A stretch of 64,000 bases of DNA from an uncultured Alphaproteobacteria bacterium (GCA_910576955.1 CAJTJB010000005.1:2844-66843); one strand, 5' to 3'. Numbered from the stretch's first letter, positions 5,204-23,582 are shown. The notes: generated by a model not told the origin, from the letters alone. Numbers and translations are program-made.

Positions 5204-7320
5204 TATTCCGATTGGCTCTTTCTTTCCAACGTGCCGCCGGATAACAGATTAAGCAATCCTTTTGTCGTATCTTTCACCACACCGACACTATCATCCAAAA
5301 TCTGCCCGACATCGCCGGTGGTGGATTGGATAACATTTTCGGGTTTCGGAAACATCGTTTCATATCCTGTTCCCTGCAGCGCCGTATAACACGGTGAGCC
5401 GTCATTTTCCAACAACATCTGCGCCCCGAGATAAACCGGACCGCCCGTAGTCACGCCAACAATGGTTTTAACGGCATTTGCGCTGTCTATACCAATTTTC
5501 GGGTTTTGTATCGTTCCGGTCAGCTTAACCAACGAAGAAAGCGCTTTAGCAATATTCGTATCGGTCAACTTTCCGGCAAAAGGTTTAATACTAACGCTGA
5601 TTTTATCATTTTTCAGATTAACGTTCCCGTTTGCAACCAGCGTAAATTTATCAGCATTCATAACAATTCCGTTCGGAAAATCCGCCTTGCCGTTTTTAAC
5701 ATCCGCACGAACAACCGCACAGCTTAAATTCAAATCGTCATTTCCCTTTGTCAGCTTTAAGGTATCAAACAATTGCGAAATAATATTGCCTTTTAACAGC
5801 CCGATATTGCCTAAATGCAACTGCGATTTATTAACAATGGCTATCGTCTGTCCGTTCAAACTGTCAATAACGCTTGCCGCCGTTGCACCGTTTCCAGACA
5901 AGTTAATATGAACATCCGTATCACTGCCGCTCGCAAAGTTAAACACCGACGAATCGGCATTAAGCGCTTTCATCAATTTCAATAAATTCATTTTAGAAAT
6001 ATCTGCATTAACAGCCACCGACTGATTAGCCGCATTGACATTCAAATTTGCCGCAACACTGCCATCTGCAATAGTTCCGCGCAAAATTTTTACCATTGCC
6101 GCACCATTGTTAATTGTTGCATTAACAGCCAAATCGCTCACTAAAACGGCATTTCCGTTCACAAGCTCTCCAACCGACACATCCGCATTAGCGTTAACAC
6201 TGTATAATTGCTGATAAGGAATCACAACCGCCGGAACCAAAGTTGTTGCCTGTGCCGAACGAATGAGAGAAATTCCCTGTGCCGTTTTGCTGGTGTCCGC
6301 AAAGGATGAAATATCAAATTTAGGCGCATTAATAACTGCAGAAACAGTGGGCACTTTATTGCCCAAATCCGCTTTTATCGTTCCGGTAATAATGTTTCCC
6401 GCAATTTTGAAACTTTTAATTGCCGCATCAACATTTTTCAAATCACCCTTAAAAGCCACCTCGACAGATTCGTTATAACTGCTGTTTTTTCCCATAAAAC
6501 CGGCAGCATCCGCAGTTCCCTCAAAACGGATATTGCCGCCCAAAACGTCATAAAGCAACACCTCCGCATTAGCTTTAATGCCCATAACATCAAGCGCGGC
6601 TTTCACCGGATATCCCGATGCGGAATTAAGAGATTTTAAAGCGCCGAATTCCCCCGAACCATTGTACAGACCGTTATTAACGTCAAATTTAAAATCAATA
6701 TTACCATCGGCATTTTCTTCCAAATTTAACAAGCTGATGTCGTAACTTTCCGTTTTAGCGGATTTATTCGTATAATTGATTTTAACATTTTCTAATGCCA
6801 CCTGCTTAACCACCAAAGCGGATAAAAACGACGCTGCATCATTTGAAGCAGCCGCTTCAGCCGCTTTTGCGCTCTTAATTAAAGAAAATTCAGCCTGTTT
6901 TTCCTGCGTCACCGGCAATTCCGGCAAAGTAAATTCCCAGTTAGCCTCACCGCTCGCACTTTCTTCAAGATTAATAACCGCGCCATTAAGCTTAAACATA
7001 TCAATAACGACATTTTTGCGCAACAGCGGCAACACGGCAAACCCCAAATCCACGACATCCGCGCTGACCATAACCGGATTATTTGCCCATTGCGCATTAG
7101 AGAAAGTCACATTTTTAACTTCAATTGTCGGATTAAACGACGCCTTAACCTGAATATCGCCGATTGTCAACTCGCGCCCTGTCGAACTGCGAACCGTCTT
7201 GATAATCAGCTCTTTATAACGGTTAAAATCAATCTGCGTTAATGCAATATAACCGGCAACAACCGCCGCCGCACACAAACCGATAACGGAAAACAAAACA
7301 ATCTTAATTGCTTTTTTCAT
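5203..7320 (-). CDS. AsmA-family outer-membrane assembly protein
   Basis: 705 aa; single N-terminal TM helix (IVLFSVIGLCAAAVVAGYIAL) followed by a long Asn/Gly/Val-rich beta-rich periplasmic region typical of AsmA/TamB-like proteins. Confidence 0.7.
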   Translation of the reverse strand: MKKAIKIVLFSVIGLCAAAVVAGYIALTQIDFNRYKELIIKTVRSSTGRELTIGDIQVKASFNPTIEVKNVTFSNAQWANNPVMVSADVVDLGFAVLPLLRKNVVIDMFKLNGAVINLEESASGEANWEFTLPELPVTQEKQAEFSLIKSAKAAEAAASNDAASFLSALVVKQVALENVKINYTNKSAKTESYDISLLNLEENADGNIDFKFDVNNGLYNGSGEFGALKSLNSASGYPVKAALDVMGIKANAEVLLYDVLGGNIRFEGTADAAGFMGKNSSYNESVEVAFKGDLKNVDAAIKSFKIAGNIITGTIKADLGNKVPTVSAVINAPKFDISSFADTSKTAQGISLIRSAQATTLVPAVVIPYQQLYSVNANADVSVGELVNGNAVLVSDLAVNATINNGAAMVKILRGTIADGSVAANLNVNAANQSVAVNADISKMNLLKLMKALNADSSVFNFASGSDTDVHINLSGNGATAASVIDSLNGQTIAIVNKSQLHLGNIGLLKGNIISQLFDTLKLTKGNDDLNLSCAVVRADVKNGKADFPNGIVMNADKFTLVANGNVNLKNDKISVSIKPFAGKLTDTNIAKALSSLVKLTGTIQNPKIGIDSANAVKTIVGVTTGGPVYLGAQMLLENDGSPCYTALQGTGYETMFPKPENVIQSTTGDVGQILDDSVGVVKDTTKGLLNLLSGGTLERKSQSE

Positions 7321-7326
7321 AATAAG

Positions 7327-8256
7327 TTACTCCTTAAAATTTAATCCGAGCGTTTTTAAACTGTCTTTAAAATAATCCGGCAATTTGGCCTTAACAACCA
7401 TTTTTTTACCATAAACCGAAGATAAATCTATTTTATAAGCGTGCAAGTGTAATTTATTTATAAACAGGCTGCTTTTCATTCTTTCTGTTCCAAAATACTT
7501 GCCATCCCCCAAAATCGGCGCACCGATATATTCCAAATGAGCGCGGATTTGATGTGTTCTGCCGGTCAACGGACTTGCGGCAATGAGTGCAAACCTGTCG
7601 GCAACGCTGTCAAGCACCTCATATTCAGTAACAGCCGGCTTGCCGCCTTCCAAAACCTGCACCCGTCCGTCCGCTTTTTCAAGCGGGGCTTTAATCTCGC
7701 CCGCCTCTTTAGGCGGCACGCCGCGCGCCAGTGCTAAATATGTCTTTTGCAACGTATGCTCTCTAAAAGCTTTAGTCAAAGTATCCGCCATTTTGCGATT
7801 ACGCGCCAAAACTAACACGCCGCTCGTATCCTTATCGATTCGATGAACCAGTTTCGGCTTTTCCTCATTGCCGAATTTCAACGCATCCAATAACCCGTCA
7901 ATATGTTTGAGCGTATTTGTGCCGCCCTGCACCGCCAACCCCGACGGCTTATTCAAAACAATGATATTCTCATCTTTATAGATAACCATATCTTCAATAT
8001 ACTTCGCATCGCGCTCCGAAACTGTGCTATGGGTTATCTCTTTTTTTTCGTTCTCAAGCGGCGGCACACGCACCTCCTGCCCTTTTTCCAAGCGGGTATT
8101 TGCCTCTGCCCGTCCACCGTCGACCTTAATCTGCTTTGTCCGCAGCAATTTTTGCAACCGTCCGAGGCTCAAGCCCGGATAATATTTCAAAAACCACCGG
8201 TTAAGCCTGATTCCGTCATCTTCCGCCTTAACTTTAACTAATTCGACACCACTCAT
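7327..8256 (-). CDS. RluA-family 23S rRNA pseudouridine synthase (RluC/RluD-like) with S4 domain
   Basis: 309 aa; N-terminal S4 RNA-binding region; catalytic motif HRIDKDTSGVLVLAR; PsiU synthase core. Confidence 0.85.
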   Translation of the reverse strand: MSGVELVKVKAEDDGIRLNRWFLKYYPGLSLGRLQKLLRTKQIKVDGGRAEANTRLEKGQEVRVPPLENEKKEITHSTVSERDAKYIEDMVIYKDENIIVLNKPSGLAVQGGTNTLKHIDGLLDALKFGNEEKPKLVHRIDKDTSGVLVLARNRKMADTLTKAFREHTLQKTYLALARGVPPKEAGEIKAPLEKADGRVQVLEGGKPAVTEYEVLDSVADRFALIAASPLTGRTHQIRAHLEYIGAPILGDGKYFGTERMKSSLFINKLHLHAYKIDLSSVYGKKMVVKAKLPDYFKDSLKTLGLNFKE

Positions 8257-9581
8257 TTATCTTCGTCCTTTTGTTGCTTTCTTGCCTTTTGTTTTTCGAT
8301 TCGCAATTTATCAAAATAATCGATTCTCTTTTTTATCTCCCGCTCAAAACCACGGTCAACCGGATTATAAAACCGCCGCCGCCCCATCTCTTCGGGAAAA
8401 TAATTTTGCCCTGAAAAGCCGTCTTCCAAATCTTGGTCATAAATATAACCGTCGTTATATCCCAGATTTTTCATAAGTTTTGTCGGTGCGTTTAAAATAT
8501 GTTTCGGCGGCATCAGCGAACCGGTTTGCCTTGCGGCCGCAAAAGCGCTGTGCATAGCTTTATAAACCGCGGCCGATTTCGGCGCAGTCGCCAAATATGC
8601 CGTTAACTGCATCACAGCCAACTCCCCCTCGGGTGAGCCGAGCCGCTCAAACGTTTCCGCACATGCAATGGCTTGCGCCACCGCATTAGGGTCTGCCAAA
8701 GAAACATCCTCAACCGCAAACCGTACCAAGCGCCTTATAATATACCGCGGGTCTTCGCCCGAAGTCAGCATCCGTGCCACCCAATACAAAGCCGCATCCA
8801 CATCCGAACCGCGCAAAGATTTATGCACTGCCGAAATCAAATTATAATGTCCGTCCCGCCCCTTGTCATACACCGGTGCACGCGAGCGGATAATTTTCAT
8901 CAGCTTGTCTTTGTCAAAAATTTCATCCGGTTTGGCATACGCCCACACGCTTTCCGCCAAATTGAGAATATAACGCCCGTCGCCGTCTGCCACATTTTTC
9001 ATAAACTCGCGCGCCTCATCGTCAACTGGCAGCTTAACCCCTTCTTCGCGCTCCGCCCGTTGCAGCAATTCCTCAAAATTTTCCGGCGTTAAGCGGTTAA
9101 GCACAAAAACTTGACAACGCGAAAGCAACGCTGCATTGAGCTCAAAAGACGGATTCTCTGTTGTTGCCCCCACCAAAATAACCGTACCGTCTTCAACATA
9201 CGGTAAAAAGCCGTCCTGCTGCGATTTATTAAAACGATGGATTTCATCCACAAACAAAAGCGTGCCTTTACCCTGTGTCACCCGCCGCTCTTTGGCATAT
9301 TGAAACACGCGTTTCAAATCCGCCACTCCGGAAAACACCGCTGAAATCTGCTCAAAATAAAGGTTCGTATGTTCGGCAATTAACCGTGCAATTGTTGTTT
9401 TGCCGCATCCCGGAGGTCCCCAGAGAATAAAAGAAGAAACCCTCCCCGTTCCGAGCATTCTGCCCAACGGCGAGTCTTCGCCCAACACTTGCTCCTGCCC
9501 CACCACATCCTGCAGCTTTTGAGGGCGAAGCCTGTCGGCAAGCGGTCTTTTGACCCTGTTTGAAAATAACGTTTCTTCCAT
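8253..9581 (-). CDS. rarA: Replication-associated recombination protein A (AAA+ ATPase)
   Basis: Walker A GPPGCGKTTIARLIA; Walker B LFVDEIHRFNKSQQD; MgsA C-terminal domain; start set at the ATG (MEETLFSN) rather than the upstream GTG; 4-nt overlap with the downstream rluC-like gene. Confidence 0.85.
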   Translation of the reverse strand: MEETLFSNRVKRPLADRLRPQKLQDVVGQEQVLGEDSPLGRMLGTGRVSSFILWGPPGCGKTTIARLIAEHTNLYFEQISAVFSGVADLKRVFQYAKERRVTQGKGTLLFVDEIHRFNKSQQDGFLPYVEDGTVILVGATTENPSFELNAALLSRCQVFVLNRLTPENFEELLQRAEREEGVKLPVDDEAREFMKNVADGDGRYILNLAESVWAYAKPDEIFDKDKLMKIIRSRAPVYDKGRDGHYNLISAVHKSLRGSDVDAALYWVARMLTSGEDPRYIIRRLVRFAVEDVSLADPNAVAQAIACAETFERLGSPEGELAVMQLTAYLATAPKSAAVYKAMHSAFAAARQTGSLMPPKHILNAPTKLMKNLGYNDGYIYDQDLEDGFSGQNYFPEEMGRRRFYNPVDRGFEREIKKRIDYFDKLRIEKQKARKQQKDEDK

Positions 9582-9736
9582 TTTTCCAATCTCGTTATAA
9601 AATATCACCTTTTATTAACACAAAGATTTAAAAGCTACAACTACATTTTTCTTAAAAACCGACATAGCTCTTGACTCTAAACAAGAAAGTTATACTATTC
9701 AACCATTAAAAAGAACAAACAACATAGGATGAAATT

Positions 9737-10555
9737 ATGAGTTTTAAAGATTTAGGCTTAAGCGAACAAACAATTCAGGCAATTGAAGACTTGGGTTATC
9801 AAGAGCCGACAACAGTTCAAAAAGACGTTATTCCGTCCGTTCTTGCCGGCAAAGATATTTTCACGATTGCGCCTGCTGCCTGCGGAAAAACCTGCTCATA
9901 CATTTTCCCGTTGATTGACATTATTTCCAAAAAAGAGGGGCAAAACATTCTGATTATCTCGGCAGATTCGAAAGAGTCGGTCAACATCTCGGATAAGCTG
10001 TCCATCTTTAACAAATACCACGAAAGCACCGCCACGGACGATTCGCAGGAAAACACCGCCAACGAGGCAAACGTTATCATTGCCGCCCCGGCTTTGCTGC
10101 TGGATAACATTGCGGAAAACCGTGTTGATGTTTCAAATATAAACATTTTGGTCGTAGACGACATTAACCTTATAAAGAAAAAGCGCCAATTAAATAATTT
10201 AAATAAAATATTGGACCTGCTGCCCGCAAATAAGCAAAACATTGTTTTCACCACCCGCCGCTCCAAAGAAACGCAGGATACGCTGGATAAAATCTTAAAA
10301 ACGCCGGCAGAAATCAAGATAGATAAAACCAAAGAAAGCGAGGTCAAAGAAGTCCGGCAAAATGAGCCGACACTTCCTGCAGAGCAAACTGTTGAAAAGC
10401 CGCAGCCCCGCAAAGCAGAAAAAAAGCCTTATCGCTCAAACCACGAAATAGATAAAAAAGCGATTGAGCTTGCCAAACGCCATAAAGTCTTCGGTAAAAA
10501 AACGCCGTCATTTTTGCTCACAAACTGCAAACTTGCCACAGAAACAAAATCTTAA
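9737..10555 (+). CDS. DEAD-box helicase-like protein, domain 1 only (degenerate motifs, Lys-rich tail)
   Basis: Q-motif region FKDLGLSEQTIQAIEDLGYQEPTTVQKDVIP; Walker-A-like APAACGKT; DEAD replaced by VVDD; no helicase domain 2 (no HRIGRTGR); C-terminal K-rich tail; the antisense ORF 9817-10413 is Ser-rich and looks spurious. Confidence 0.55.
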   Translation: MSFKDLGLSEQTIQAIEDLGYQEPTTVQKDVIPSVLAGKDIFTIAPAACGKTCSYIFPLIDIISKKEGQNILIISADSKESVNISDKLSIFNKYHESTATDDSQENTANEANVIIAAPALLLDNIAENRVDVSNINILVVDDINLIKKKRQLNNLNKILDLLPANKQNIVFTTRRSKETQDTLDKILKTPAEIKIDKTKESEVKEVRQNEPTLPAEQTVEKPQPRKAEKKPYRSNHEIDKKAIELAKRHKVFGKKTPSFLLTNCKLATETKS

Positions 10556-10638
10556 TGAAATCAAAAAAAAGACTTGCGCTATTTTTTACGAAGTTTTATA
10601 CAAAAGAAAAAACACTAACCTAACTATGGAGATGCTAA

Positions 10639-11394
10639 ATGTCAGGACACTCCCAATTTAAAAATATTATGTACCGCAAAGGTGCACAAGATGCTAAAAA
10701 AGCCAGAGTTTTCGCAAAACTCGCGCGTGAAATCACTGTTGCCGCCAAAAGCGGCCTGCCCGAGCCGGATAAAAACCCGCGTTTAAGGCTGGCAATTCAG
10801 GCAGCCCGTGCCGAAAGTATGCCGAAAGACAATATTGAACGCGCCATCGCCAAAGCCACACAGGTTGCCGGCGGCGCAGATTTTACCACAATGCGTTATG
10901 AAGGCTTTTCTGCCAACAAAACCGCCGTTATTGTTGAGGCTTTGACAGATAATAAAAACCGTACGGCAAGCAACGTCCGCTCCATCTTTGGCAAACGTGG
11001 CGGGGCAATGGGCGAAACCGGCTCGGTAACCTTTAACTTTGAACGTATCGGCTATATTGAATATCCGCTGTCTGTTGCAGACGCTGACAAAATGTTTGAA
11101 GAAGCATTAGAAGCCGGTGCAAACGAAGTCGTTTCCGAAGACGACATCCACGCGATTGAAACTCTGCCGGACGATTTGTCTGCCGTAACCGAAGCTTTGG
11201 AACAAAAATTCGGCACACCGTCTGCCTCTCGTCTGGACTGGAAACCGACCGTAAAATCTGAAATAACGGATTTGGAAACCGCAAAGAAGTTCCTCGAATT
11301 TATTGACGCACTGGAAGAAGACGAAGACGTACAACACGTTTATCACAATGCCGACATCGCCGAAGACATTATGGCGCAGCTTGAGGCCGAATAA
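10639..11394 (+). CDS. yebC: YebC/PmpR-family DNA-binding transcriptional regulator
   Basis: 251 aa; canonical N-terminus MSGHSQFKNIMYRKGAQDAKKARVFAKLAREI. Confidence 0.9.
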   Translation: MSGHSQFKNIMYRKGAQDAKKARVFAKLAREITVAAKSGLPEPDKNPRLRLAIQAARAESMPKDNIERAIAKATQVAGGADFTTMRYEGFSANKTAVIVEALTDNKNRTASNVRSIFGKRGGAMGETGSVTFNFERIGYIEYPLSVADADKMFEEALEAGANEVVSEDDIHAIETLPDDLSAVTEALEQKFGTPSASRLDWKPTVKSEITDLETAKKFLEFIDALEEDEDVQHVYHNADIAEDIMAQLEAE

Positions 11395-11883
11395 ATGCGG
11401 ATTTTAGGTCTTGACCCGAGTATATCTTCTACCGGTTGGGGCATAATCGATGTAAATGGAAACCGTCTGTCCTATGTGGCAGACGGTTTTATTGCAACCA
11501 ACGCCAAAACACCGCTTACCAAACGTTTGCAGACAATTCATAACGAGCTGCGCCGCGTCATAGAGCTCTACAAACCCAACGAAGCCTCCATTGAAATAAC
11601 CTTTCTGAACATAAACCCCGAAACCTCTCTCAAATTAAGTATGGCGCGCGGAGTCGTTTTTCTTATGCCGGCGCTATATAACATTCCACTGTATGAATAC
11701 GAACCGAATAAAATCAAAAAAGCGCTAACCGGAGTCGGCAGGGCAGAGAAAGCCCAAGTTGAAACAATGGTCAAGATTCTTCTCCCCGGTTGCCAACCCC
11801 AAAACAACGATTCGTCAGACGCCCTCGCCATTGCCATCACGCATTGCAATCTGCGTAATACATACGGAGATAAAGCCGTTTAA
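11395..11883 (+). CDS. ruvC: Crossover junction endodeoxyribonuclease RuvC
   Basis: 162 aa; MRILGLDPSISSTGWGII N-terminus with catalytic Asp; ATG immediately follows the yebC stop. Confidence 0.9.
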   Translation: MRILGLDPSISSTGWGIIDVNGNRLSYVADGFIATNAKTPLTKRLQTIHNELRRVIELYKPNEASIEITFLNINPETSLKLSMARGVVFLMPALYNIPLYEYEPNKIKKALTGVGRAEKAQVETMVKILLPGCQPQNNDSSDALAIAITHCNLRNTYGDKAV

Positions 11884-11941
11884 CCCTCTTAATTATAACC
11901 GGCTTTTAACACATAATAAAAGGCGCCGCAGCGCCCCTTAT

Positions 11942-12547
11942 TTATAAATCCGCAATCACCTGCAAACTAATAATCTCATCCGGCTGGCTCACCATACCGT
12001 TATAGCCACCGCCTTTGCGAATATTGTCCACAAACTCCATACCGGAAACGACTTTACCCCAAACCGTATATTGCCCGTTCAAATGCGGACAATCATCATA
12101 ACAAATAAAAAACTGGCTGTCTGCCGAGTCGGGGTGCATTGCCCTTGCCATCGAAACAATCCCTCGCGTATGCGGAATACGGTTAAACTCTGCTTTTAAC
12201 TTCTTGCCGCTTCCGCCCGTGCCTGTTCCCAAAGGGCAACCAGTTTGCGCCATAAACCCCTCAATAACGCGATGAAACTTCAATCCGTTATAAAATCCTT
12301 CACGTACCAATTCTTTAATTCTGGCAACGTGGTTTGGTGCATCTTCAGGAAACATCTCAATCACCACTTCGCCGTCTTTAAGTTTCATCACCAATGCATT
12401 TTCTGCATCCGTAACGTTATAGGAATGTTTCATTTTCTTCCCTCTTGTTTCGCTTACGCCGAGCTGTTTTTTTTCCTCTGCAATCAGATTTTTGGTTTCA
12501 CTCTTGCCCAAACTTTTCGTATCGCTTTTTTCCAATACATTAACCAT
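11942..12547 (-). CDS. ppiB: Peptidyl-prolyl cis-trans isomerase, cyclophilin type, with Lys-rich N-terminal extension
   Basis: 201 aa; cyclophilin core FHRVIEGFMAQTGCP...GTGGSG; low-complexity K/E-rich N-terminal 40 aa. Confidence 0.8.
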   Translation of the reverse strand: MVNVLEKSDTKSLGKSETKNLIAEEKKQLGVSETRGKKMKHSYNVTDAENALVMKLKDGEVVIEMFPEDAPNHVARIKELVREGFYNGLKFHRVIEGFMAQTGCPLGTGTGGSGKKLKAEFNRIPHTRGIVSMARAMHPDSADSQFFICYDDCPHLNGQYTVWGKVVSGMEFVDNIRKGGGYNGMVSQPDEIISLQVIADL

Positions 12548-12590
12548 TGTAAACTCCTTAAAAATATTCCGTTTACCACTATTTAGGGAT

Positions 12591-13547
12591 TTATTTTCCG
12601 TTATTCAAGACAAAATCAACGCGTTCTTCCGCAGAAAGTCCCGTCGGAAACTTTTTATCAATTTCTTCCAGACGATGCCGCAAGCCGCGCCCGTTGGCAA
12701 TTTGGATAGCAAGCCCCGGACGTGCGTTAATCTCTAACATCATCGGCCCGCGGTTTTTATCAAGCACAATATCTGCCCCCAGATACCCCAGTCCGGTCAT
12801 ATCATAGGCAAGAGCCCCGATAATCAAATGCTCGCGCCAAAACGGCACTTTCAAATCCATCAGATTTGCGCCAGTATCCGGATGCACCAAAACCGGTTTA
12901 TTATGCATAACCGCATTAAGCGTTTTGCCAGTTTGCACATCCAACCCGACGCCAACCGCCCCTTGATGCAAATTTGCCCGTCCGCCCGATTCCTTTGTTG
13001 CCAAACGCATCATCACCATCGCCGGAAAACCTTTATACACGATAACCCGCACATCCGGCACACCATGATAGCTGAAATTTTTAAATACATCGCTGAAATT
13101 AACCGCCTCTTCAATCAGCGCCACATCATATTTGCCGCCCAAACTGAACAAACCGCTTAAAGTATTGGAAATATGCTGGTAAACATCTTTATAACTCAAC
13201 ACATCTCCCGACGCACTGTAAAACTTTTCTCCATCATATTTCTTAATCACCAACACGCCTTTGCCGCCGCTGCCATGCGCCGGCTTAATCACAAAGGTTT
13301 CATACCCTTTAACAATATCCAAAATATTTTTAACCTGATATTGATATTCAATAATACCAATCATTTTCGGCGTATTGATATGGATGCTGTTGGCGAGTCG
13401 TTTGGTTTTAACTTTATCATCCACTAATGTATAAAGCGAGCGTTTATTATATTTTGCAATCACAGAATAGTTACGGTCATTCATCCCCAAAACGCCGCAT
13501 TCTTTTAACGCCCGCGCTGTTTTCACCCATTTAAACATCAGCCTCAT
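12591..13547 (-). CDS. RimK-related ATP-grasp enzyme (alpha-L-glutamate ligase-like)
   Basis: ATP-grasp motifs (VIKPAHGSGGKGV, MLEINARPG); overall RimK-like fold signature; start placed at the first ATG (MRLMFKW), the track ORF begins at an upstream TTG; overlaps the stop of the upstream 7TM gene. Confidence 0.75.
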   Translation of the reverse strand: MRLMFKWVKTARALKECGVLGMNDRNYSVIAKYNKRSLYTLVDDKVKTKRLANSIHINTPKMIGIIEYQYQVKNILDIVKGYETFVIKPAHGSGGKGVLVIKKYDGEKFYSASGDVLSYKDVYQHISNTLSGLFSLGGKYDVALIEEAVNFSDVFKNFSYHGVPDVRVIVYKGFPAMVMMRLATKESGGRANLHQGAVGVGLDVQTGKTLNAVMHNKPVLVHPDTGANLMDLKVPFWREHLIIGALAYDMTGLGYLGADIVLDKNRGPMMLEINARPGLAIQIANGRGLRHRLEEIDKKFPTGLSAEERVDFVLNNGK

Positions 13548-15084
13548 CCTTGCGAATAAGCGGCGCAAAACGCGTCAATTCCGTTAAGCGATATCCGGTA
13601 TACGTTCCCAAAAGCATCACAATAAACATTATCACCAGATTAAGCTCATTAAATGCAAACATAATATGCCGCACATAGTCATTGCTGATAACAAAATACG
13701 TCACAATTGCCGTCAACAGCGTGAAAAAGATTTCCTTAACCGTATTTCTCGCCCCGTCTTCTTCCCAAGTGATTGACGCGCGTTCAATAATCCACGCCGT
13801 AATAATAATCGGGAAAAAGATTGCCGAACTAACAATGCCGTAATTCATCCGATAACCGATAATCGTCAATAGTTGAATAAGCAAAATTACAAATATCACC
13901 ACAAAAGAAATTCTCGGCACAAGCAGCAAATTAAGCTTTGCAACCAACGCCCGCATAATCAACCCTAAAAATATCATAACCGAAAAACAAACCAGCCCCG
14001 GCACAAACCCAGTTTTCACCAGTGACATAGCTAAAAGCATCGGTGTAAACGTTCCCATTGTCGTCACCCCGATAACATTTCGCATTATAACCACCACCAA
14101 AATTGCCAACGGGAAAATCATCAGCCATTTCAACGTGTTCTGCTCCATAAGCGGCAACGCATAAATAGAATATTGATAAGGCATAAACTCGCTGTTAGCC
14201 TTTGCCCGATACTCTGCCATCTTCAGCGGTGACGCAACAGATTTCAAAACCGAAAACATAACTTTAGAATCTTCGCCGCCGCGCACATCCAAAAGCGAAA
14301 CACCGCCGCGTTGAAAAACAATCCAGTTTTTCGGCAACCCTTTCTGCGCCGTATCCAAGTCATACAATGTCCATTTATTATCCAGATACGCCTCAAGCAT
14401 TATCCCAGGCTTTTCCGTTTTTTTACCCTCTTCAAGCTTAATTGCCCGCACGATTCTGGAAGGAATGCGCTTATAAGCCAAAATCTGCATAATACGTTCC
14501 GCAAATTCTTTCGATGTATGGTTAAGCGGCAAAACCAAACTCATTGTCGGGTTAACAAGTTCCTGATTTACGGTAGAAATAATCTTTTGAACCTTATCCC
14601 CCTCCTGCAATTCCGCCAATTCCCAAATCTTATTCATTTGCTGGGTTTCTTCTTCTGACAAAATCGGTCTTTCCACTTTTGCCGGCACCTGCTTGCTCAA
14701 CTTGCTGTTCTGCACATCATCATATATGCTTAAACGATAATAAAGATTTTGCTTTCCTTGTTTTTTCTTCCCCTGAAACGAGATACGGTTATTTTTATTA
14801 TCGTCCACAACCTTATATCCTTTGGCAACAATCTCCTCGCTCAAAATTTTAAAACTGTCATTGCTGCTCGGCACGGTTAATGCAACATTCACATCCTCGC
14901 CCACCGCATTAAAACTGATTTTCGCATCAATCGTCCACACATCCGTCACTTGCTTTGGCGAAAAGGTAAAGCCCCAATATTTAACTTTATAATAAATACT
15001 GTATCCTGCATACGCCATAGACAGCAACAGTAAAAAGCTTAACACTTTCCGTACCGTAAAAAATTCAGACAGTTTCAATTTCAT
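13531..15084 (-). CDS. 7TM membrane protein with large N-terminal extracytoplasmic domain (inactive-transglutaminase-7TM-like)
   Basis: 517 aa from MKLKL (gaggga RBS); N-terminal signal-anchor helix; about 300-aa soluble region; seven hydrophobic helices at the C-terminus; the start lies 12 nt downstream of the retropepsin-like gene's stop and the ATP-grasp start overlaps this gene's 3' end. Confidence 0.6.
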   Translation of the reverse strand: MKLKLSEFFTVRKVLSFLLLLSMAYAGYSIYYKVKYWGFTFSPKQVTDVWTIDAKISFNAVGEDVNVALTVPSSNDSFKILSEEIVAKGYKVVDDNKNNRISFQGKKKQGKQNLYYRLSIYDDVQNSKLSKQVPAKVERPILSEEETQQMNKIWELAELQEGDKVQKIISTVNQELVNPTMSLVLPLNHTSKEFAERIMQILAYKRIPSRIVRAIKLEEGKKTEKPGIMLEAYLDNKWTLYDLDTAQKGLPKNWIVFQRGGVSLLDVRGGEDSKVMFSVLKSVASPLKMAEYRAKANSEFMPYQYSIYALPLMEQNTLKWLMIFPLAILVVVIMRNVIGVTTMGTFTPMLLAMSLVKTGFVPGLVCFSVMIFLGLIMRALVAKLNLLLVPRISFVVIFVILLIQLLTIIGYRMNYGIVSSAIFFPIIITAWIIERASITWEEDGARNTVKEIFFTLLTAIVTYFVISNDYVRHIMFAFNELNLVIMFIVMLLGTYTGYRLTELTRFAPLIRKDEADV

Positions 15085-15095
15085 AGTTCCCTCGT

Positions 15096-15626
15096 TCAAT
15101 TCAATGTATACGATGTTGATGTATCAACAATAAATCGGCCGGTTAAGATATTGCGTCCGACAAGCCCCTGATAATCAAAGTTTGTCCTATCCGCAATTGA
15201 AAAGACGGCGCTGAAGACTTCCCCGCCCATTTTAACATCCATCTTAACAGCTTTTCTGTTTTCATCCTCTCCCATACGCTTAACCTTAAACGTCCTCTCA
15301 ACTTTTTTCTCAAAAACGTGCTCTTCGCCGCTTTTACGGTTTTTCAACTTAAAACTGACCCATTTCTCGCCATCACGCTCAAAATAATTAACATCTTTGC
15401 AGTCCAAAGAAGAAGTTGTTGCCCCCGTATCAATTCTAGCCGAAAACGGCGACTTCATCGGCAAAAAATAAATCGGCTCAACCTCTCCGATAATCGGCAG
15501 ATGAGCCTTTTCAACCACAATTTCCTGCGTTGTATTCACGTTATGCACCACTGCCGGCACAATCACTTGTTTTGGTTGGCAAGCTGAAATCGTAAAAATA
15601 AGCGACAATAAAAATAACTTACGCAT
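15096..15626 (-). CDS. Retropepsin-like aspartic protease (DUF785/putative ATP-dependent zinc protease family, RimB-like), lipoprotein signal
   Basis: D-T-G-A signature in FSARIDTGATTSSLD; N-terminal MRKLFLLSLIFTISAC signal with lipobox-like Cys; start set at ATG MRKLF (the track ORF begins at an upstream TTG). Confidence 0.7.
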   Translation of the reverse strand: MRKLFLLSLIFTISACQPKQVIVPAVVHNVNTTQEIVVEKAHLPIIGEVEPIYFLPMKSPFSARIDTGATTSSLDCKDVNYFERDGEKWVSFKLKNRKSGEEHVFEKKVERTFKVKRMGEDENRKAVKMDVKMGGEVFSAVFSIADRTNFDYQGLVGRNILTGRFIVDTSTSYTLN

Positions 15627-15805
15627 TTTTATCCATACCCTCTTGATTAAAATTAAAAAAATCAAATTATCATTATTTTGATAAATATATTGATTTTATA
15701 CAAGAAACACCATAAAAAACACACTAATACACAAGGAAAATCAATCAAACGGATGTATCCAAACAAGTACATCGTATTTAAACAATGTATTTAAAAAGCA
15801 AAAAA

Positions 15806-15830
15806 GGCGCACGTTGTCGCCCTTATTCAA
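15806..15830 (-). terminator. Probable rho-independent terminator downstream of the porin gene
   Basis: On the minus strand, hairpin GGCGAC..GUGCGCC (bulged) followed by UUUUUUGCUUUUU. Confidence 0.4.
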
Positions 15831-15848
15831 ACAAACCTTTCGCTCACG

Positions 15849-16982
15849 TTAGAAAAACACTGTTGCACGCAAACTCGTAACGAAACCGTAATCCGATTTT
15901 TGGTTAAGTGCCGGATTAATATAGAATTGCACATCCGGCGTTAATGTCAGCATATTACCGATTCCCCACGCCCAATAAGCCTCAACAATTTGCTCCTCTT
16001 TGTGTTTTAACGTCTGCCCCACGGCTTTCTCATCCAATTTATTATATGCATACGCCAGCCCGATTTGGTCAAGAGAATTTCTGTTTAGCGGGTTTTTATA
16101 AACGCCGCCAAACACCCATGATTGCCGGATGCTTTCCACACTGCCGCTCACCTCATTCAACCGTGCAAAAAGGCTGACTTTTTCACCAATATCCTGCGAT
16201 ATATTTAAAGACCAGCCGTTCGTTGTTTCCGGTTGTTCATGCACCCCCGGCTGATTATACGCCAATAGCGAAATTTCCGAGTCGCCAAGTCCTTTAATCG
16301 TCGGGGTATAGGCAATATAACCGAATGTTGTATAATGTTTCTCATCCAAATGGTTAAAACGAACGCTGGTTGCGTCAATATTCGTTCCGTCCTGCCCGCC
16401 AAACGCAAAAGACCACTTGTTATTTGGCGAAATCTGCGCATAAATTCCCAATCCCGCCTGCGTATAAGAGGCTGATGCATTTTGCGCCAGCGCGTCATTC
16501 AAAAAGTTAACTTGTTGGTTTGCATCATAATTTGTTCCGTCAAAATTATAAATCGGAAATTGTCCCAAGCCTAAAGTCAGCCAATTCCACTTGCCGGCTG
16601 GCTGATAGGTATAATACAGTTCTGAAAATTCGTCTTCGTTGCCCGAATAGTCATTCAACGGCGTCACAAATCCGGAATTATTCGCCAAATCATTTCCGTT
16701 ATGATTGCCGTATCGTATAATCGTATACGCAAAGTTCAACGCCCCGATGCCATATTCATTATTAAACGTTGTCCACATAAACGACGGATACAAATAAGCC
16801 TGCACGGCATTATGCTCCCCGTTCGGGCTGGAACGCTGCTCTAAAACGGAAATATCAAAGTTATAATCAAAACCATATTCTTTATCTAATTTATTTTTGA
16901 AATCTTGGTAATTTTCCGCTTTTGCTAAACTGGAAAAAGACAAAAACAAACATCCCCATAAAAAAGTTCTAAAACACCTCAT
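15849..16982 (-). CDS. Carbohydrate-selective porin, OprB family (outer membrane beta-barrel)
   Basis: 377 aa; signal peptide ending LAKA; Tyr/Gly/Asn-rich alternating beta-strand pattern; C-terminal Phe (RATVFF); overall resemblance to the OprB/carbohydrate porin family. Confidence 0.6.
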   Translation of the reverse strand: MRCFRTFLWGCLFLSFSSLAKAENYQDFKNKLDKEYGFDYNFDISVLEQRSSPNGEHNAVQAYLYPSFMWTTFNNEYGIGALNFAYTIIRYGNHNGNDLANNSGFVTPLNDYSGNEDEFSELYYTYQPAGKWNWLTLGLGQFPIYNFDGTNYDANQQVNFLNDALAQNASASYTQAGLGIYAQISPNNKWSFAFGGQDGTNIDATSVRFNHLDEKHYTTFGYIAYTPTIKGLGDSEISLLAYNQPGVHEQPETTNGWSLNISQDIGEKVSLFARLNEVSGSVESIRQSWVFGGVYKNPLNRNSLDQIGLAYAYNKLDEKAVGQTLKHKEEQIVEAYWAWGIGNMLTLTPDVQFYINPALNQKSDYGFVTSLRATVFF

Positions 16983-17123
16983 TATTCACATCCTTTGTTT
17001 ATATTAAAAGCCTTTCGGATATAACCTTAAAAACTGCTAAAAAAAGGGGGTGGAGCAAAAAAACTCTTGAAGAAACAGGATAAAACGGCTAAACTCGCCA
17101 CCATAACAGAGGGATACATACAA

Positions 17124-17792
17124 ATGATAGCAAAATTAAAAGGAATAATAGACAATATCGGCGAAGACTGTTGTATTATTGATGTCAACGGTGTCGGGTA
17201 TCTGGTTAATATGTCATCGCGTTCCCTTTCCAAACTCACACAAGGGGAATATGCCGTTCTGCTGATAGAAACCGTCATCAAAGAAGACAGTTTCACCCTT
17301 TTCGGCTTTCAAACCGCATGGGAAAAAGAATGGTTTAACACGCTGACGAAGATTCAAGGCGTTGGCGGTAAAGTATGTTTAAATATTTTAAGCGCCTTAT
17401 CGCCCGCCCAGCTCTCCCAAGCCGTTGCCGCCCAAGACAAAAGCTCATTTTTGCGTGCTGCCGGCGTCGGTCCTAAATTAGCCGCCAGACTGGTCACCGA
17501 ATTAAAAGGCAAAATCGTAACTATCCCAATGGAATATATGTCCGGCGCAGAGTTAAACGACTCTTCCGATGCAACAGAAACAAACAATCCGAAAGACAAA
17601 ACCGCCCCTCAAGCCCCTGCAGAAGAAACTGATGCGGCTTATTCCAAAACAGAAGATGTCACTTCCGCCCTTACCAATTTAGGCTATGCTAAAATAGACG
17701 CATACCGAGTCGCGGCGGAAATTTGCATGAACAATCCTAATGCTGACATAGGAACGCTAATCCGGTTGGCTCTTAAAGAATTTAACCAATAG
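17124..17792 (+). CDS. ruvA: Holliday junction branch migration complex subunit RuvA
   Basis: Start set at MIAKLKGIID (canonical RuvA N-terminus; agaggga RBS); HhH motifs; C-terminal domain III. Confidence 0.9.
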   Translation: MIAKLKGIIDNIGEDCCIIDVNGVGYLVNMSSRSLSKLTQGEYAVLLIETVIKEDSFTLFGFQTAWEKEWFNTLTKIQGVGGKVCLNILSALSPAQLSQAVAAQDKSSFLRAAGVGPKLAARLVTELKGKIVTIPMEYMSGAELNDSSDATETNNPKDKTAPQAPAEETDAAYSKTEDVTSALTNLGYAKIDAYRVAAEICMNNPNADIGTLIRLALKEFNQ

Positions 17793-17801
17793 GAGAATAA
17801 T

Positions 17802-18857
17802 ATGCCAGAAGACAAAGAACGTATTGTCAGCGCTCAAAAGCTTTCCACCGATGAGGCTAATTCTCCGGCAGCTGTTAATCTGCGCCCCTCAACATTAGAC
17901 GAATTCGTCGGGCAAGATAAGGTCTGCCAAAACCTTAAAGTGTTTATTCAATCAGCTAAAAGCCGTGGCGAAGTTCTCGACCACGTTTTGCTGTATGGAC
18001 CTCCCGGCTTGGGCAAAACAACTTTATCAAACATCATCTCCAAAGAATTAGGCGTGGGGTTCAAAGCCACTTCCGCACCAATGATTACCCGCTCGGGCGA
18101 TTTAGCTGCTATTTTAACCAACTTGGAAGCGCGCGACGTTTTGTTTATTGATGAAATCCACCGCTTAAACCCCGCCATAGAAGAAGTATTATATTCGGCA
18201 ATGGAAGACTTCCAGCTTGATATCATTATCGGCGAAGGCCCTTCCGCCCGCTCGGTAAAAATAGATTTGCAACCCTTTACCCTCGTTGGCGCAACCACCC
18301 GCTCGGGTTTGGTTTCCACCCCGTTGCGCGAACGTTTCGGCATTCCGCTGCGGATGGATTTTTATAATCACGAAGATTTACAAAAAATAGTCCTCCGTGG
18401 CGCAGCGCTTTTAAATATGCCCATTTCAACAGACGGCGCAATGGAAATTGCCAAACGCTCCCGCGGCACACCGCGTATTGCCGGACGCCTGCTCAAACGC
18501 GTCCGTGATTTCGGTGCTGTCGCCGGCAATGTTGAAATCGATTCGTCCATTGCAGATAAAGCCTTACAGCTATTAGACGTCGATTCTTACGGGCTTGATG
18601 AATTTGACCGCCGCTACTTAACCTGCATCGCCAAAAATTACGGCGGCGGACCTGTTGGCGCAGATACGCTTGCCGCCGCATTGTCCGAAGAGCGCGATAC
18701 CATCGAAGAAGTAATAGAACCATATCTTTTAAAGCTCGGTTTTTTACAGCGCACACCGCGCGGACGTGTCCTTTCAGAACTCGGCTGCAAATATTTAGGT
18801 ATCAGCAAATTCAAAAATGACAATCAATTCAGTTTTATAGATGATTTAGGATTTTAA
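17802..18857 (+). CDS. ruvB: Holliday junction branch migration DNA helicase RuvB
   Basis: 351 aa; Walker [14 protein letters not shown]; Walker [10 protein letters not shown]; sensor and winged-helix C-terminus. Confidence 0.95.
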
Positions 18858-18858
18858 A

Positions 18859-19296
18859 ATGACATACGAAACATCTCCCATCACCGGAACATTATTTGAA
18901 GATAAAACATTTTCTTTCCCCGTTCGCATCTACTATGAAGATACAGACGCCGGCGGGATTGTTTATTATGCCAATTACCTAAAATACGCCGAGCGCGCCC
19001 GCACCGAATTTTTGCGCCATCTGGGTTTAAATCAGGAAGAAATGTTAAAAAATCAAGGTATGGGCTTTGTCGTCCGCGACTGCCATATCAGCTACAAATC
19101 TCCGGCAAAATTGGATGATGCCTTAAACATCACCTGCAAAGTTACAGAAATAAAAGGCGTTTCGCTCAAAATGGAGCAAAAGCTCTACCGAGAGGACACC
19201 GTTCTGTCGGAAATTGAAATCACGCTGGTTTTCTTAAGCCTGCCTGCTATGCGCCCGACTAAAATTCCTGCTGAAATATTGTCGCTGTTGCAATAA
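18859..19296 (+). CDS. ybgC: Tol-Pal-associated acyl-CoA thioesterase YbgC (hotdog fold)
   Basis: 145 aa; 4HBT hotdog motif YYEDTDAGGIVYYANYLKYAERART; position after ruvAB as in many alphaproteobacteria. Confidence 0.8.
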   Translation: MTYETSPITGTLFEDKTFSFPVRIYYEDTDAGGIVYYANYLKYAERARTEFLRHLGLNQEEMLKNQGMGFVVRDCHISYKSPAKLDDALNITCKVTEIKGVSLKMEQKLYREDTVLSEIEITLVFLSLPAMRPTKIPAEILSLLQ

Positions 19297-19303
19297 GCAA
19301 TCA

Positions 19304-19690
19304 TCACGGCTTAACGGTGGTATCAGCATTGAAAGCCGCCCCCAAATATCCCATAGCCCAAACATAATCATTATAATAACGCAATCTATGAGGTCTGACA
19401 AAAGTATGCTTATCCGCCAGACTATTAACAATTAAAAAAGCATTATTTGCCTCTTCGGGTTTTATCGGAAAACACACCTGATACGAATATCCGTCATCCC
19501 ATATATAACGTGGCAAAGCCACCGCATTATCGTTTTTTATGAGATAAATTTTCCGAACATCCGCAAGCTGCACCCTCTCGCTGACTTTGGCAGCCTCCCC
19601 CATCTCATTGCCATTCAAATAGCTTATGCTCATCCTCATATCAGAAGAAACCGGACACGCGGGATTAACTTCTTTTAAAAACACCGGCAT
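19304..19690 (-). CDS. Hypothetical protein
   Basis: 128-aa ORF; no recognisable domain. Confidence 0.35.
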   Translation of the reverse strand: MPVFLKEVNPACPVSSDMRMSISYLNGNEMGEAAKVSERVQLADVRKIYLIKNDNAVALPRYIWDDGYSYQVCFPIKPEEANNAFLIVNSLADKHTFVRPHRLRYYNDYVWAMGYLGAAFNADTTVKP

Positions 19691-19773
19691 ATACGGTGGC
19701 GGCGGAAGAAGAGGGAAAATCCCGACAAAACCGCTGTCTTTCTCTGCAAATCCAAATCGGATATTTTCAACAT

Positions 19774-19980
19774 TTATTGTTTTCTTTTCAGAAACATCCG
19801 TTGTTTTTGATTAGAATATACTTTCCGAAAGTTCAACCCGTCCAACCGAAACATCTCCCGTTCATAGAGCGCTTTGTCGTCAACATCTGAAAAAGTCATA
19901 TACTCGCTGTGTGCCAACACGCTCACACCGCATCCGGAAAGCAAAAGAGGCAAGAAAATAACACTGTTTTTAAAAAACAT
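19774..19980 (-). CDS. Small putative lipoprotein
   Basis: 68 aa; signal peptide with LLLSGC lipobox; stop is 2 nt before the LptF/G-family gene. Confidence 0.4.
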   Translation of the reverse strand: MFFKNSVIFLPLLLSGCGVSVLAHSEYMTFSDVDDKALYEREMFRLDGLNFRKVYSNQKQRMFLKRKQ

Positions 19981-19981
19981 A

Positions 19982-21094
19982 TTATTCTTCTTTATGTAGA
20001 TACACCGACACGCTCAATGACGCCACAATAATTGCCGGCGCCCACACCGCAAACCAAACCGGAATATACGCATTAATGCCAAAAGCAGAAATCACCTGCG
20101 ACGAAAAATATACCGTAAATCCGGTCGTAATTCCGAAAATAATCATCCACAACACACCTCCTTGCCGTTGGCTTGCTTTCAGCGAGAATATGCCCGCCAC
20201 CAACACCATCGCCATAAGCAAGAAAGGCAGCGCCACCAAACTCAAATATCTCATTTTATGCCGTTGTACCGAAAAGCCAGACGCCTCATAAAACTCAATC
20301 GTATCCGGTAAATTCCAAAATGAAATTGCCTCCGGATCAACAAAGTTATCTTTAATCCGCTGCAAATTCATTTCCGTCGGATATTGCAAACTGTTTAAAA
20401 CCTCAACTTGCTGTCCTGTTTTATAGATTCGCACATCGCGCAAATTAAGATTACCCTCCTCAAGCGTTGCAACAAACGCCTCGATTCGCCGTATCACCTG
20501 CGTCCGTTCGTCAACCTCTATAATGCTGACATCGTGCAACCAGAGCACATTTTCTTGCAGATTAAGCCCGTTTGCGTTAATAATAGCCACATTATCCGCA
20601 CTTTTGCCTTCACGAATCCATAACCCTTTGTTCGAAAACAAAAAAGCATTAGGATTATCCGTTGACAATCGGTAAGACAATGTTTCCTTAAGCTCATATA
20701 ATCGCGCAGAAATCGGATTAAGCGCCGCAATCCAAAAAAAGCCGATTCCAAACACCGCCAGCAAAACCGGTGTCAGCACGCCCCAGATAGAAACGCCCGC
20801 CGCCCGAATAATCACAAACTCATTCGTTTTGCTTAATCTCCAAAAAGTTATCATTGTTGAAACCATCACAATAAACGGAATAACTTTATCAACCGTTTCC
20901 GGCAACTTTGCCACCACATATTCAAGCAAAAAGCCGATGGAAACCTCGTGTCTGCCGGATGTTTTTCGTAAAATTTCAATCATATCAAACATCATAATGA
21001 TTGCCGAAATCACCGCCAAAACATATAAAAAGTTCAACACAGTCTGTTTTATAAGATAAGTTCCCAAAATAGAGTTCGGTTTCATCATCGTCAC
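19982..21094 (-). CDS. LPS export ABC permease, LptF/LptG (YjgP/YjgQ) family
   Basis: 370 aa; six TM helices with a large periplasmic loop between TM3 and TM4, typical of the YjgP/YjgQ family. Confidence 0.8.
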   Translation of the reverse strand: MTMMKPNSILGTYLIKQTVLNFLYVLAVISAIIMMFDMIEILRKTSGRHEVSIGFLLEYVVAKLPETVDKVIPFIVMVSTMITFWRLSKTNEFVIIRAAGVSIWGVLTPVLLAVFGIGFFWIAALNPISARLYELKETLSYRLSTDNPNAFLFSNKGLWIREGKSADNVAIINANGLNLQENVLWLHDVSIIEVDERTQVIRRIEAFVATLEEGNLNLRDVRIYKTGQQVEVLNSLQYPTEMNLQRIKDNFVDPEAISFWNLPDTIEFYEASGFSVQRHKMRYLSLVALPFLLMAMVLVAGIFSLKASQRQGGVLWMIIFGITTGFTVYFSSQVISAFGINAYIPVWFAVWAPAIIVASLSVSVYLHKEE

Positions 21095-21100
21095 AAAATC

Positions 21101-22024
21101 CTAAAAATAGCCGGTAGATAAATAGCGGTCAACGCCATCCGGCAAAATAACAATAAAACGCTTGTTTTTAAATTCGCCGCGTTTTGCAAGTTCAAGAGCG
21201 GCTGCCACCGCAGCGCCGGCAGAAATTCCCGCCGGCAATCCCTCGGTTTTCGCCACCAATTTTGCCGTATCAATAGCTTTATCATCGCCGACTTTAACAA
21301 CTTCGTCAACCAGATTTTTATCATAAAACGGCGGCACAAATCCGGCACCGATTCCCTGAATCTTATGAATGCCTTTTTCTTCCCCGCTCAAAACGGCGCT
21401 GCTTTCCGGCTCAACCGCCGCCACAAACAAATCTTGATTATATGTTTTCAAAACCGACGCAATGCCTGTCAAAGTGCCCGATGTGCCGACACCGGCAACC
21501 AACACATCAAAATTTCCACCGGTATCTTCCAAAATCTCAACAGCCGTTCCCATCCGGTGCGCATTCGGATTCGCCTCATTTTCAAACTGGCTTAAAATCA
21601 CCACATTCGGATTCCTCTCTTTCAAGAGTTCCGCTTTATGAATAGCCCCGCTCATTCCATCTTCTTTCGGGGTTAAAATAACTTCCGCCCCCAAATGGCG
21701 CATAAGGCTGATACGCTCTTGCGACATATTCTCCGGCATAACGATAATAAGCTTATACCCTTTTGCCGCGCACATTGCCGCAAGCCCGATTCCCGTATTG
21801 CCGGATGTTGCCTCCACAAACACCGTATCCGGCGAAACGCCTTTTTTCTCTTCCGCCTCAATCATTGCCAATGCGATTCTGTCTTTAATTGAAAAGAGCG
21901 GATTATACATCTCGCATTTTGCCAAAATCTCCGCATTTATCCGCAGTTTAGTAGTGAGCTTTCCCAAACGCAGCAACGGCGTATGCCCAACAAGCTCTAC
22001 GATAGAATTATAAACTTTTTCCAT
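21101..22024 (-). CDS. cysK: Cysteine synthase A (O-acetylserine sulfhydrylase), PLP-dependent
   Basis: 307 aa; PLP-lysine motif FSIKDRIALAMI; TSGNTGIGLA; GIGAGFVP. Confidence 0.85.
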   Translation of the reverse strand: MEKVYNSIVELVGHTPLLRLGKLTTKLRINAEILAKCEMYNPLFSIKDRIALAMIEAEEKKGVSPDTVFVEATSGNTGIGLAAMCAAKGYKLIIVMPENMSQERISLMRHLGAEVILTPKEDGMSGAIHKAELLKERNPNVVILSQFENEANPNAHRMGTAVEILEDTGGNFDVLVAGVGTSGTLTGIASVLKTYNQDLFVAAVEPESSAVLSGEEKGIHKIQGIGAGFVPPFYDKNLVDEVVKVGDDKAIDTAKLVAKTEGLPAGISAGAAVAAALELAKRGEFKNKRFIVILPDGVDRYLSTGYF

Positions 22025-22663: not shown

Positions 22664-22757
22664 AAAAACCTCTCTTCACAGACTTTCTTTACAAATATTT
22701 TACCAACAATATATAACATAAAATGCATAAATAAAGCTTTATTTTAAGGATTAAACA

Positions 22758-23519: not shown

Positions 23520-23553
23520 GGCGATTAAAATCCTGTTTCAGAGCACTTTTTTC

Positions 23554-23582
23554 TTGACTTTTAGGCAATTACCCTCTAAATC
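23554..23582 (+). promoter_or_regulatory. Candidate sigma-70-like promoter upstream of rpsA
   Basis: TTGACT, then a 17-nt spacer, then TAAATC, about 100 nt upstream of the rpsA ATG. Confidence 0.3.

Follow-up and report, generated by a model that had tools for sequence, protein, structure and literature searches.

We analyzed a three-gene locus, rloA-rloB-rloC, in a 64,000-nucleotide (nt) stretch of DNA from an uncultured Alphaproteobacteria bacterium (GCA_910576955.1, CAJTJB010000005.1:2844-66843; the whole stretch is hereafter called the window). The genes encode a retropepsin-like protease (RloA), a membrane protein with a transglutaminase-like domain and seven transmembrane (TM) helices (RloB), and an ATP-grasp ligase (RloC). 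Compared at the level of sequence, the locus is shown to be orthologous to the rloABC operon of Pseudomonas, here in an uncultured gut alphaproteobacterium. The features of the locus are listed below, counted from the first nucleotide of the window.

15096..15626, minus strand: rloA, 176 amino acids (aa); the exact product is called in public assemblies, and the longest open reading frame (ORF) offers an alternative TTG start at 15665
15579..15626, minus strand: predicted RloA signal peptide and lipobox, MRKLFLLSLIFTISA then C16 (I-S-A-C16), read from the sequence
15423..15431, minus strand: RloA catalytic D66-T67-G68, aligning to the DTG of the crystallized Pseudomonas RloA proteins
15085..15095, minus strand: rloA-rloB spacer, 11 nt from the rloA stop to the rloB ATG, holding the Shine-Dalgarno-like GAGGGA
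13531..15084, minus strand: rloB, encoding a 517-aa inner-membrane protein (Pfam PF14400 and PF14402)
14977..15045, minus strand: RloB N-terminal membrane anchor, about residues 14-36 (helix 11-37 in the AlphaFold2 (AF2) model), preceded by basic residues
14152..14976, minus strand: RloB extracytoplasmic transglutaminase-like domain, about residues 37-311 (about 275 aa), catalytically dead
13570..14151, minus strand: RloB 7-helix membrane domain, about residues 312-505, with nearly all family-wide invariant residues
13531..13538, minus strand: overlap of the rloB end with the rloC start, 8 nt (ATGTTTAA), including the rloC ATG
12591..13538, minus strand: rloC, 315 aa (TIGR02291, PF14397)

The minus strand was confirmed to carry three co-directional and tightly packed ORFs at the coordinates given in an earlier note on this DNA. 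The longest ORFs are 15096..15665, 13531..15099, and 12591..13568, all on the minus strand. The start codons adopted here follow the genes called in public records of contigs identical to the window (GCA_948861045.1 and an ENA gut assembly); these genes are shorter than the longest ORFs. The range of 12591-15665 given in the earlier note therefore covers real ORFs and spans their longest versions, the public rloA start being at 15626. The coupling geometry that the note had described was found at the junctions, with the 8-nt rloB/rloC overlap; the spacer between rloA and rloB is 11 nt and not 12, so that the description was accurate within one nucleotide.

Profile searches reproduced all three family assignments of the note. 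RloA matched the Pfam family Zn_protease (PF05618) with an E-value of 8.5e-28, and RloB matched Transglut_i_TM (3.5e-28) and 7TM_transglut (4.7e-77). RloC matched ATPgrasp_ST (PF14397; 2.6e-88) and passed the NCBIfam model TIGR02291 (rimK_rel_E_lig, "alpha-L-glutamate ligase-like protein") with 421.4 bits against a cutoff of 314.2. The ATP-grasp motifs of RloC could be read directly as VIKPAHGSGGKGV and GADIVLD...MLEINARPG, and no hydrophobic segment was found in this protein. RloA also matched the NCBIfam models RloA3, RloA2, RloA, and RimB, all under their cutoffs; the score for RloA3 was 99.6 bits, below the naming cutoff of 210, and that for RimB was 53.8 bits against a cutoff of 200. The NCBIfam RloB model gave a full-length match (2.4e-80) with 270.7 bits, below its naming cutoff of 900. 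These NCBIfam models (equivalog/exception type for RloA, RloA2, and RloA3, exception type for RloB) were fitted to Pseudomonas sequences; the proteins of the window match them over the full length but are too divergent. Among solved structures, 9g59, 9g58, and 2pma are relatives of RloA, the best matches of RloC (cyanophycin synthetase and RimK) were weak, and RloB has no sequence-detectable solved structure.

The gene triad was reportedly first described in a comparative-genomics study by Iyer et al. in 2009. The names rloA, rloB, and rloC were given in Pseudomonas aeruginosa/fluorescens by Lormand et al. (mBio 2025; PMC12239564) to a retropepsin-like osmotic-stress-tolerance operon. In Pseudomonas, RloA is a retropepsin-like protease that is secreted and forms dimers (PDB 9G58 and 9G59), and it cleaves runs of at least 8 Glu in vitro (PMC12239564). 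Loss of all three proteases (rloA1-3) is lethal in salt-free medium and causes defects of shape, biofilm formation, and beta-lactam tolerance; deletion of rloB or rloC suppresses these defects, and RloB and RloC were placed upstream of RloA (PMC12239564). The operon was described as mainly gammaproteobacterial, and most of its carriers also hold rimB-rimK (PMC12239564), whose products make and trim poly-alpha-L-glutamate according to a companion paper (PMC11957791). The rlo operon is a recently recognized determinant of envelope stress, antibiotic tolerance, and biofilm formation. The earlier note had regarded the function of such neighboring ligase and 7TM genes as not experimentally defined. 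This view has to be corrected, since rloABC was defined in 2025 by RloA structures, cleavage of at least 8 Glu, and genetics, and NCBIfam models for RloA and RloB exist.

We compared the operon of the window with that of a Pseudomonas genome, in which rloA, rloB, and rloC encode 178, 511, and 328 aa, with 5 nt between rloA and rloB and 1 nt shared by rloB and rloC. RloA, RloB, and RloC of the window are 34, 28, and 46% identical to the Pseudomonas proteins end to end, and the two operons share gene order, sizes, families, and translational coupling. They differ in that the Pseudomonas RloA carries a type I signal peptide and is a soluble protein, whereas the RloA of the window is a lipoprotein with a linker of about 30 aa and a shorter flap. 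Moreover, the Pseudomonas operon lacks the cyclophilin gene downstream and the porin gene upstream that are found in the window. A triad of the same kind (182, 516, and 316 aa) was also found in Lentisphaerota bacterium ZTH (CP119760), whose RloA is a lipoprotein (VSGC). The ZTH proteins are 42, 37, and 52% identical to those of the window, and all three are closer than the Pseudomonas proteins. The ZTH operon, the nearest one found outside the gut clade, belongs to a different phylum, and its upstream neighbors are DNA gyrase/topoisomerase IV-type genes rather than a porin gene. The nearest RloB representatives outside the clade described below (39–42% identity) are likewise labeled Victivallales/Lentisphaerota. 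Such pairwise identities would fit an exchange of the complete operon between gut lineages. Taken together, the window holds, on sequence grounds, a divergent member of the already named rloABC system and not a new kind of system.

In the ZTH genome, no ORF of at least 100 aa was found in the 3 kb after rloC (8499..11500 of the extracted locus), a stretch that contains no Ns and could be an RNA gene region or pseudogenized.

To map the residues of RloA, we used a HMMER alignment to 9g58, with the numbering checked at nine positions. The crystallized RloA proteins are Pfl01_1762 and PA0462 (Lormand et al., PMC12239564). The mapping holds, since the nine positions all agree at one constant offset. 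The catalytic D48 of P. aeruginosa RloA corresponds to D66 in the motif R64-I-D66-T-G-A, and K46, R92, R114, and R137 correspond to R64, R111, R124, and R147, respectively. In addition, K95 and K97 correspond to K114 and K116, the non-conserved R99 is replaced by Met, and K109 falls in a gap caused by the shorter flap. K46, R92, R114, and R137 coordinate polyglutamate in P. aeruginosa RloA, and R114 and R137 are essential for polyglutamate (polyE) cleavage and for complementation (PMC12239564). The catalytic Asp and all four symmetric polyglutamate-binding basic residues are therefore kept in the RloA of the window, with Arg in place of K46. In regards to secretion, the earlier note had proposed a secreted or lipoprotein protease with a DTGA signature, in agreement with the I-S-A-C16 lipobox and the R64-I-D66-T-G-A motif. 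The RloA sequences of related loci also have a hydrophobic stretch followed by Cys; the strict lipobox pattern is present in 62 of 81, and the non-matches among 13 inspected sequences read FGC, SAC, or AAC. These sequence features indicate that RloA is lipid-anchored in this clade, a clade-specific trait in comparison with the type I signal peptide of Pseudomonas.

The topology of RloB was derived from hydropathy and from the AF2 model with DSSP. The transglutaminase-like domain lacks the catalytic Cys and is fused to seven TM helices, giving eight helices with the anchor. The 517 aa, the N-terminal anchor, and the seven C-terminal helices are as described in the earlier note, which had put the extracytoplasmic domain at about 300 aa instead of about 275. 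The C-terminus is predicted to be cytoplasmic. In an exhaustive HMMER scan for the RloB family, 1,753 cluster representatives (50% identity) passed E ≤ 1e-3 and 380 passed 1e-30; the length was 500–530 aa in nearly all. Among 54 diverse sequences, the invariant or near-invariant residues were almost entirely within the 7TM part: Q315, R335, G339, G344-T-F346, P348, R378, P390-R391, P425, E434-R435, W440, E442, E480, Y495, G497, R499, and R505-F506. The periplasmic domain was weakly conserved in the same sequences, with only W50, P72, L217, W238, L310, and P311 near-invariant. From the modeled topology, we infer that several of the conserved charged motifs face the cytoplasm, the side of RloC. 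Conservation does not extend to the C-terminal tail of RloB, and the C-terminus was therefore rejected as an acceptor of RimK-like modification. The nearest 50%-cluster representative of RloB (P0288, 53% identity) comes from an 11.7-kb contig of a metagenome-assembled genome (MAG) labeled "Lactobacillales bacterium" and was not used; this label is probably a binning error, because the architecture of the protein implies a periplasm.

A scan of species-representative genomes found 303 stretches that encode a relative of RloB, of which 80 loci, down to 54% identity, were kept. All 80 belong to one clade of gut Alphaproteobacteria. The genomes are MAGs of uncultured gut or rumen Alphaproteobacteria, for example "Acetobacter sp. 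CAG:977", "Acetobacter sp. 46_36", "Azospirillum sp. 51_20", and Candidatus Scatocola, which NCBI places in Rhodospirillales. This is in accordance with the host-associated alphaproteobacterial origin suggested by the earlier note. We counted the neighboring genes by tblastn of the proteins of the window against 82 loci (80 of them in species-representative genomes). RloA and RloC were each found in 81 of the 82 loci, and rloB was flanked by rloA and rloC in 81, so that the co-conservation of the neighborhood proposed as a check in the note was observed. The cyclophilin, the porin, ruvA, and ruvC were found in 77, 72, 41, and 24 of the 82 loci, respectively. The rloA-rloB spacing was 9–49 nt in 77 of 78 measured loci, and the rloB-rloC spacing was −8 to +5 nt in 61 of 78, with −8 the commonest value (19/78). 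Because gene order and spacing recur in the 78 measured loci, in Pseudomonas, and in Lentisphaerota, the arrangement is not due to chance.

The operon block also persisted in the 49 distant loci, defined by an RloB identity below 62%. The cyclophilin gene was present in 46 of them, two of the three exceptions being contig ends, and it started 23–89 nt after rloC in 40 of 45 measured. In contrast, ruvA was present in 10 of 49 and ruvC/yebC in none. These results indicate that the operon belongs stably to the gut clade as a core-like locus. The earlier note had supposed it to be unexpected in this chromosome; this is contradicted by its presence at the same locus in at least 80 species-level genomes of the clade. 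A compact rloABC operon, without a paralogue in the window, is thus fixed in a large clade of uncultured gut Alphaproteobacteria, which widens the known range beyond Gammaproteobacteria. Vertical inheritance of a gene order, without cooperation of the three genes, is suggested by the ruvAB/ruvC/yebC flanks that close relatives share, which do indicate that descent accounts for part of the conservation; as a full account it is effectively refuted, because the order and coupling of the triad recur in unrelated genomic contexts in Gammaproteobacteria and Lentisphaerota, the triad outlasts these flanks in the distant loci, the overlapping or near-overlapping coding ends are maintained, and the genes show epistasis in Pseudomonas (PMC12239564).

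We consider it reasonably probable that this locus, as an rloABC orthologue, acts on a Glu polymer that RloC builds, RloB passes on, and RloA cuts. RloC would make an alpha-linked Glu chain at the expense of ATP, free or on an acceptor, at the Arg-rich cytoplasmic face of RloB. RloB, with a cytoplasmic N-terminus, a dead periplasmic domain, and a 7-helix bundle, would hand or translocate the anionic product to the periplasm. There, RloA, a lipid-tethered homodimeric aspartic protease, would cut runs of about 8 or more Glu and prevent the product from building up. The order of these steps is supported by the Pseudomonas genetics, because failure of the last step is lethal at low osmolarity and deletion of rloB or rloC relieves it. 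The Arg-rich 7TM core, the variable periplasmic domain, the polyglutamate-binding residues of RloA, and the linked cyclophilin are constraints that we offer for the mechanism.

Known systems provide partial parallels. RimABK, which polyglutamylates ribosomal protein S6, also combines a relative of the ATP-grasp Glu ligase with a PF05618 retropepsin that cuts polyglutamate, and the analogy drawn in the earlier note was upheld. RimK also makes free poly-alpha-L-glutamate (PMC11957791). RimABK differs in that RimB is cytoplasmic without a signal peptide, whereas RloA of the window has one, and in that no membrane component is present. Cyanophycin synthetase CphA1, through its ATP-grasp G domain, is the best solved-structure match to RloC, although marginal (E 0.0014). 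This ATP-grasp enzyme adds to the C-terminal end of a poly-amino-acid chain, and it differs from RloC in being large and multidomain and in having no membrane partner. The PgsBCA/CapBCA system with CapD/PgdS likewise combines a membrane-associated ATP-dependent amide ligase, an external Glu polymer, and a dedicated extracytoplasmic hydrolase. However, PgsB is Mur-ligase-like and not an ATP-grasp enzyme, the linkage is gamma, the system is mainly Gram-positive, and its families are unrelated to those of rlo, so that the likeness is conceptual.

Several points weigh against a Glu-polymer pathway. The RimK-family model TIGR00768 gave 36.9 bits for RloC, below its cutoff of 143.4; Pfam files RloC as "sugar-transfer associated ATP-grasp" and not as RimK; and the product of RloC has been identified in no organism. 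In regards to RloB, transport is a supposition, Foldseek gave no TM match for the model, and the likeness to RnfA/NqrE is one between helical bundles, seen with a model of only moderate confidence (predicted local distance difference test, pLDDT, 76; predicted template modeling score, pTM, 0.58). The cleavage of polyE by RloA is known in vitro only. Finally, as the proteins of the window fall below the narrow NCBIfam RloA and RloB cutoffs, functional equivalence is an extrapolation across 28–46% identity.

The assignment of RloC to ATPgrasp_ST is also the starting point of a different explanation, in which RloC uses as acceptor of an amino acid something other than a protein, such as a sugar, a precursor that is lipid-linked or related to peptidoglycan, or an exopolysaccharide unit, and RloB flips or presents the product. 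The polyglutamate activity of RloA would then be incidental, or RloA would have another periplasmic target, such as a cell-wall enzyme. The shape, beta-lactam, and biofilm defects of the Pseudomonas mutants fit such a role, and their authors raise peptidoglycan homeostasis; moreover, the Vibrio orthologues are induced by VxrB, a regulator of cell-wall damage (PMC12239564), and a mutant of an RloB-like gene in Shewanella over-produces membrane vesicles (PMC12096838). However, Pseudomonas and the window share the polyglutamate-coordinating residues of RloA, and these are needed for complementation in vivo, which argues that a Glu-rich substrate is the real one. In addition, the operon has neither a glycosyltransferase gene nor a cell-wall gene linked to it in any of the three settings (the window, Pseudomonas, and Lentisphaerota). 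We regard modification of an envelope precursor as unlikely, though as the likeliest of the alternatives.

RloB might instead be a 7TM receptor whose dead domain binds a peptide made or destroyed by RloA and which controls RloC, the latter acting on a cytoplasmic target as RimK does on S6. An extracytoplasmic domain of ligand-binding type joined to a 7TM part with a conserved cytoplasmic face is indeed a receptor-like architecture. Both RloC and the co-operonic cyclophilin lack a signal sequence and are therefore probably cytoplasmic, and in RimABK a protease and a ligase act on one cytoplasmic protein. Nevertheless, conservation within the RloB family is lowest in the periplasmic domain, an odd pattern for a sensor of a specific ligand. 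RloA and RloC lie in different compartments and yet show epistasis of the substrate-product type, and the RloB tail is not conserved as an acceptor. A sensor module is accordingly an improbable explanation, and RloC-dependent synthesis of a Glu polymer that is passed by RloB to RloA is the reading that we keep.

The features around the operon are as follows.

10639..11883, plus strand: yebC-ruvC, flank
11922..11935: second terminator-like hairpin, in the 58-nt gap between the convergent cyclophilin and ruvC ends
11942..12547, minus strand: cyclophilin peptidyl-prolyl isomerase (PPIase) gene, ppi (PF00160, 9.6e-44), 43 nt after rloC
15803..15824, minus strand: terminator-like hairpin with a T-run, 3′ of the porin gene and before the AT-rich rloA leader
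15849..16982, minus strand: OprB-family/AaxA-like outer-membrane porin gene, 5′ of rloA (PF04966, 2.3e-14; NCBIfam AaxA, 4.5e-79, below cutoff)
17067..18857, plus strand: ruvA-ruvB, flank

The cyclophilin gene lies 3′ of rloC in the 77 loci that hold it, with a gap of 23–89 nt in 67 of 73 measured, and this linkage is far more stable across relatives than the flanking ruv synteny. No terminator-like site was found in the 43-nt gap between rloC and the cyclophilin gene in the window. The spacing and conserved position suggest that the cyclophilin is probably co-transcribed as a fourth gene in the gut clade, whereas the operons of Pseudomonas and Lentisphaerota have no adjoining cyclophilin. The protein carries a conserved Lys-rich N-terminal extension of about 45 aa (about 12413..12547) without a signal peptide, which contains three or four [S/A][E/D]TKxL repeats (EKSDTKSL, GKSETKNL, EEKKQL, SETRGKK). 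It is conceivable, though doubtful, that the rlo system of this clade has four parts, with the Lys-rich tail binding or chaperoning the anionic product or RloC, RloB and RloC forming a hitherto unrecognized synthase-exporter that delivers poly-alpha-glutamate to the periplasm, and the lipid-anchored RloA serving as the depolymerase. If true, this would represent a new class of Gram-negative envelope polymer.

The porin, whose best NCBIfam match is the chlamydial arginine porin AaxA, was rejected as a co-transcribed member of the operon. A terminator-like hairpin follows its gene, and in distant relatives a gene of the opposite strand without a Pfam hit lies between the porin gene and rloA, or the porin gene is elsewhere (L063, L070); these findings indicate that the porin gene is a separate transcription unit. 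The porin may nonetheless be linked to the operon in function. In the Azospirillum sp. 51_20 MAG, the intervening gene is a 337-aa ORF on the opposite strand (4223..5236 of that locus, minus strand) with an N-terminal hydrophobic segment, an NlpC/P60-resembling motif (GDIVMTPRGGGRYHATTYIG), and no Pfam hit. At this position between the porin gene and rloA, a gap of comparable size (about 1–1.5 kb, in some cases longer) is seen in most other distant relatives. The gene of this 337-aa ORF is absent from the window.

Consensus promoter sites were fewer in the scanned sequence than in shuffled controls, the rloA leader held none, and no promoter is therefore claimed. The small ORFs in the leader (15627..15848) were unconvincing as a precursor peptide, and no Rfam match that would point to a regulatory RNA was obtained in 11800..17100 at E ≤ 1. 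Six-frame translation of the window contained no run of at least 6 Asp/Glu as a nearby genome-encoded acidic substrate, and no paralogue of RloA, RloB, RloC, the porin, or the PPIase was found within the 64 kb.

The yebC-ruvC and ruvA-ruvB pairs are split by the five-gene minus-strand block of porin, rloA, rloB, rloC, and ppi. Furthermore, GC skew is negative across nearly the whole window (1..58000) and slightly positive past about 60 kb, and the GC content drops from about 0.43 to 0.32–0.34 after about 60 kb (60000..64000). This shift could point to a landmark of replication or to a segment of foreign composition.

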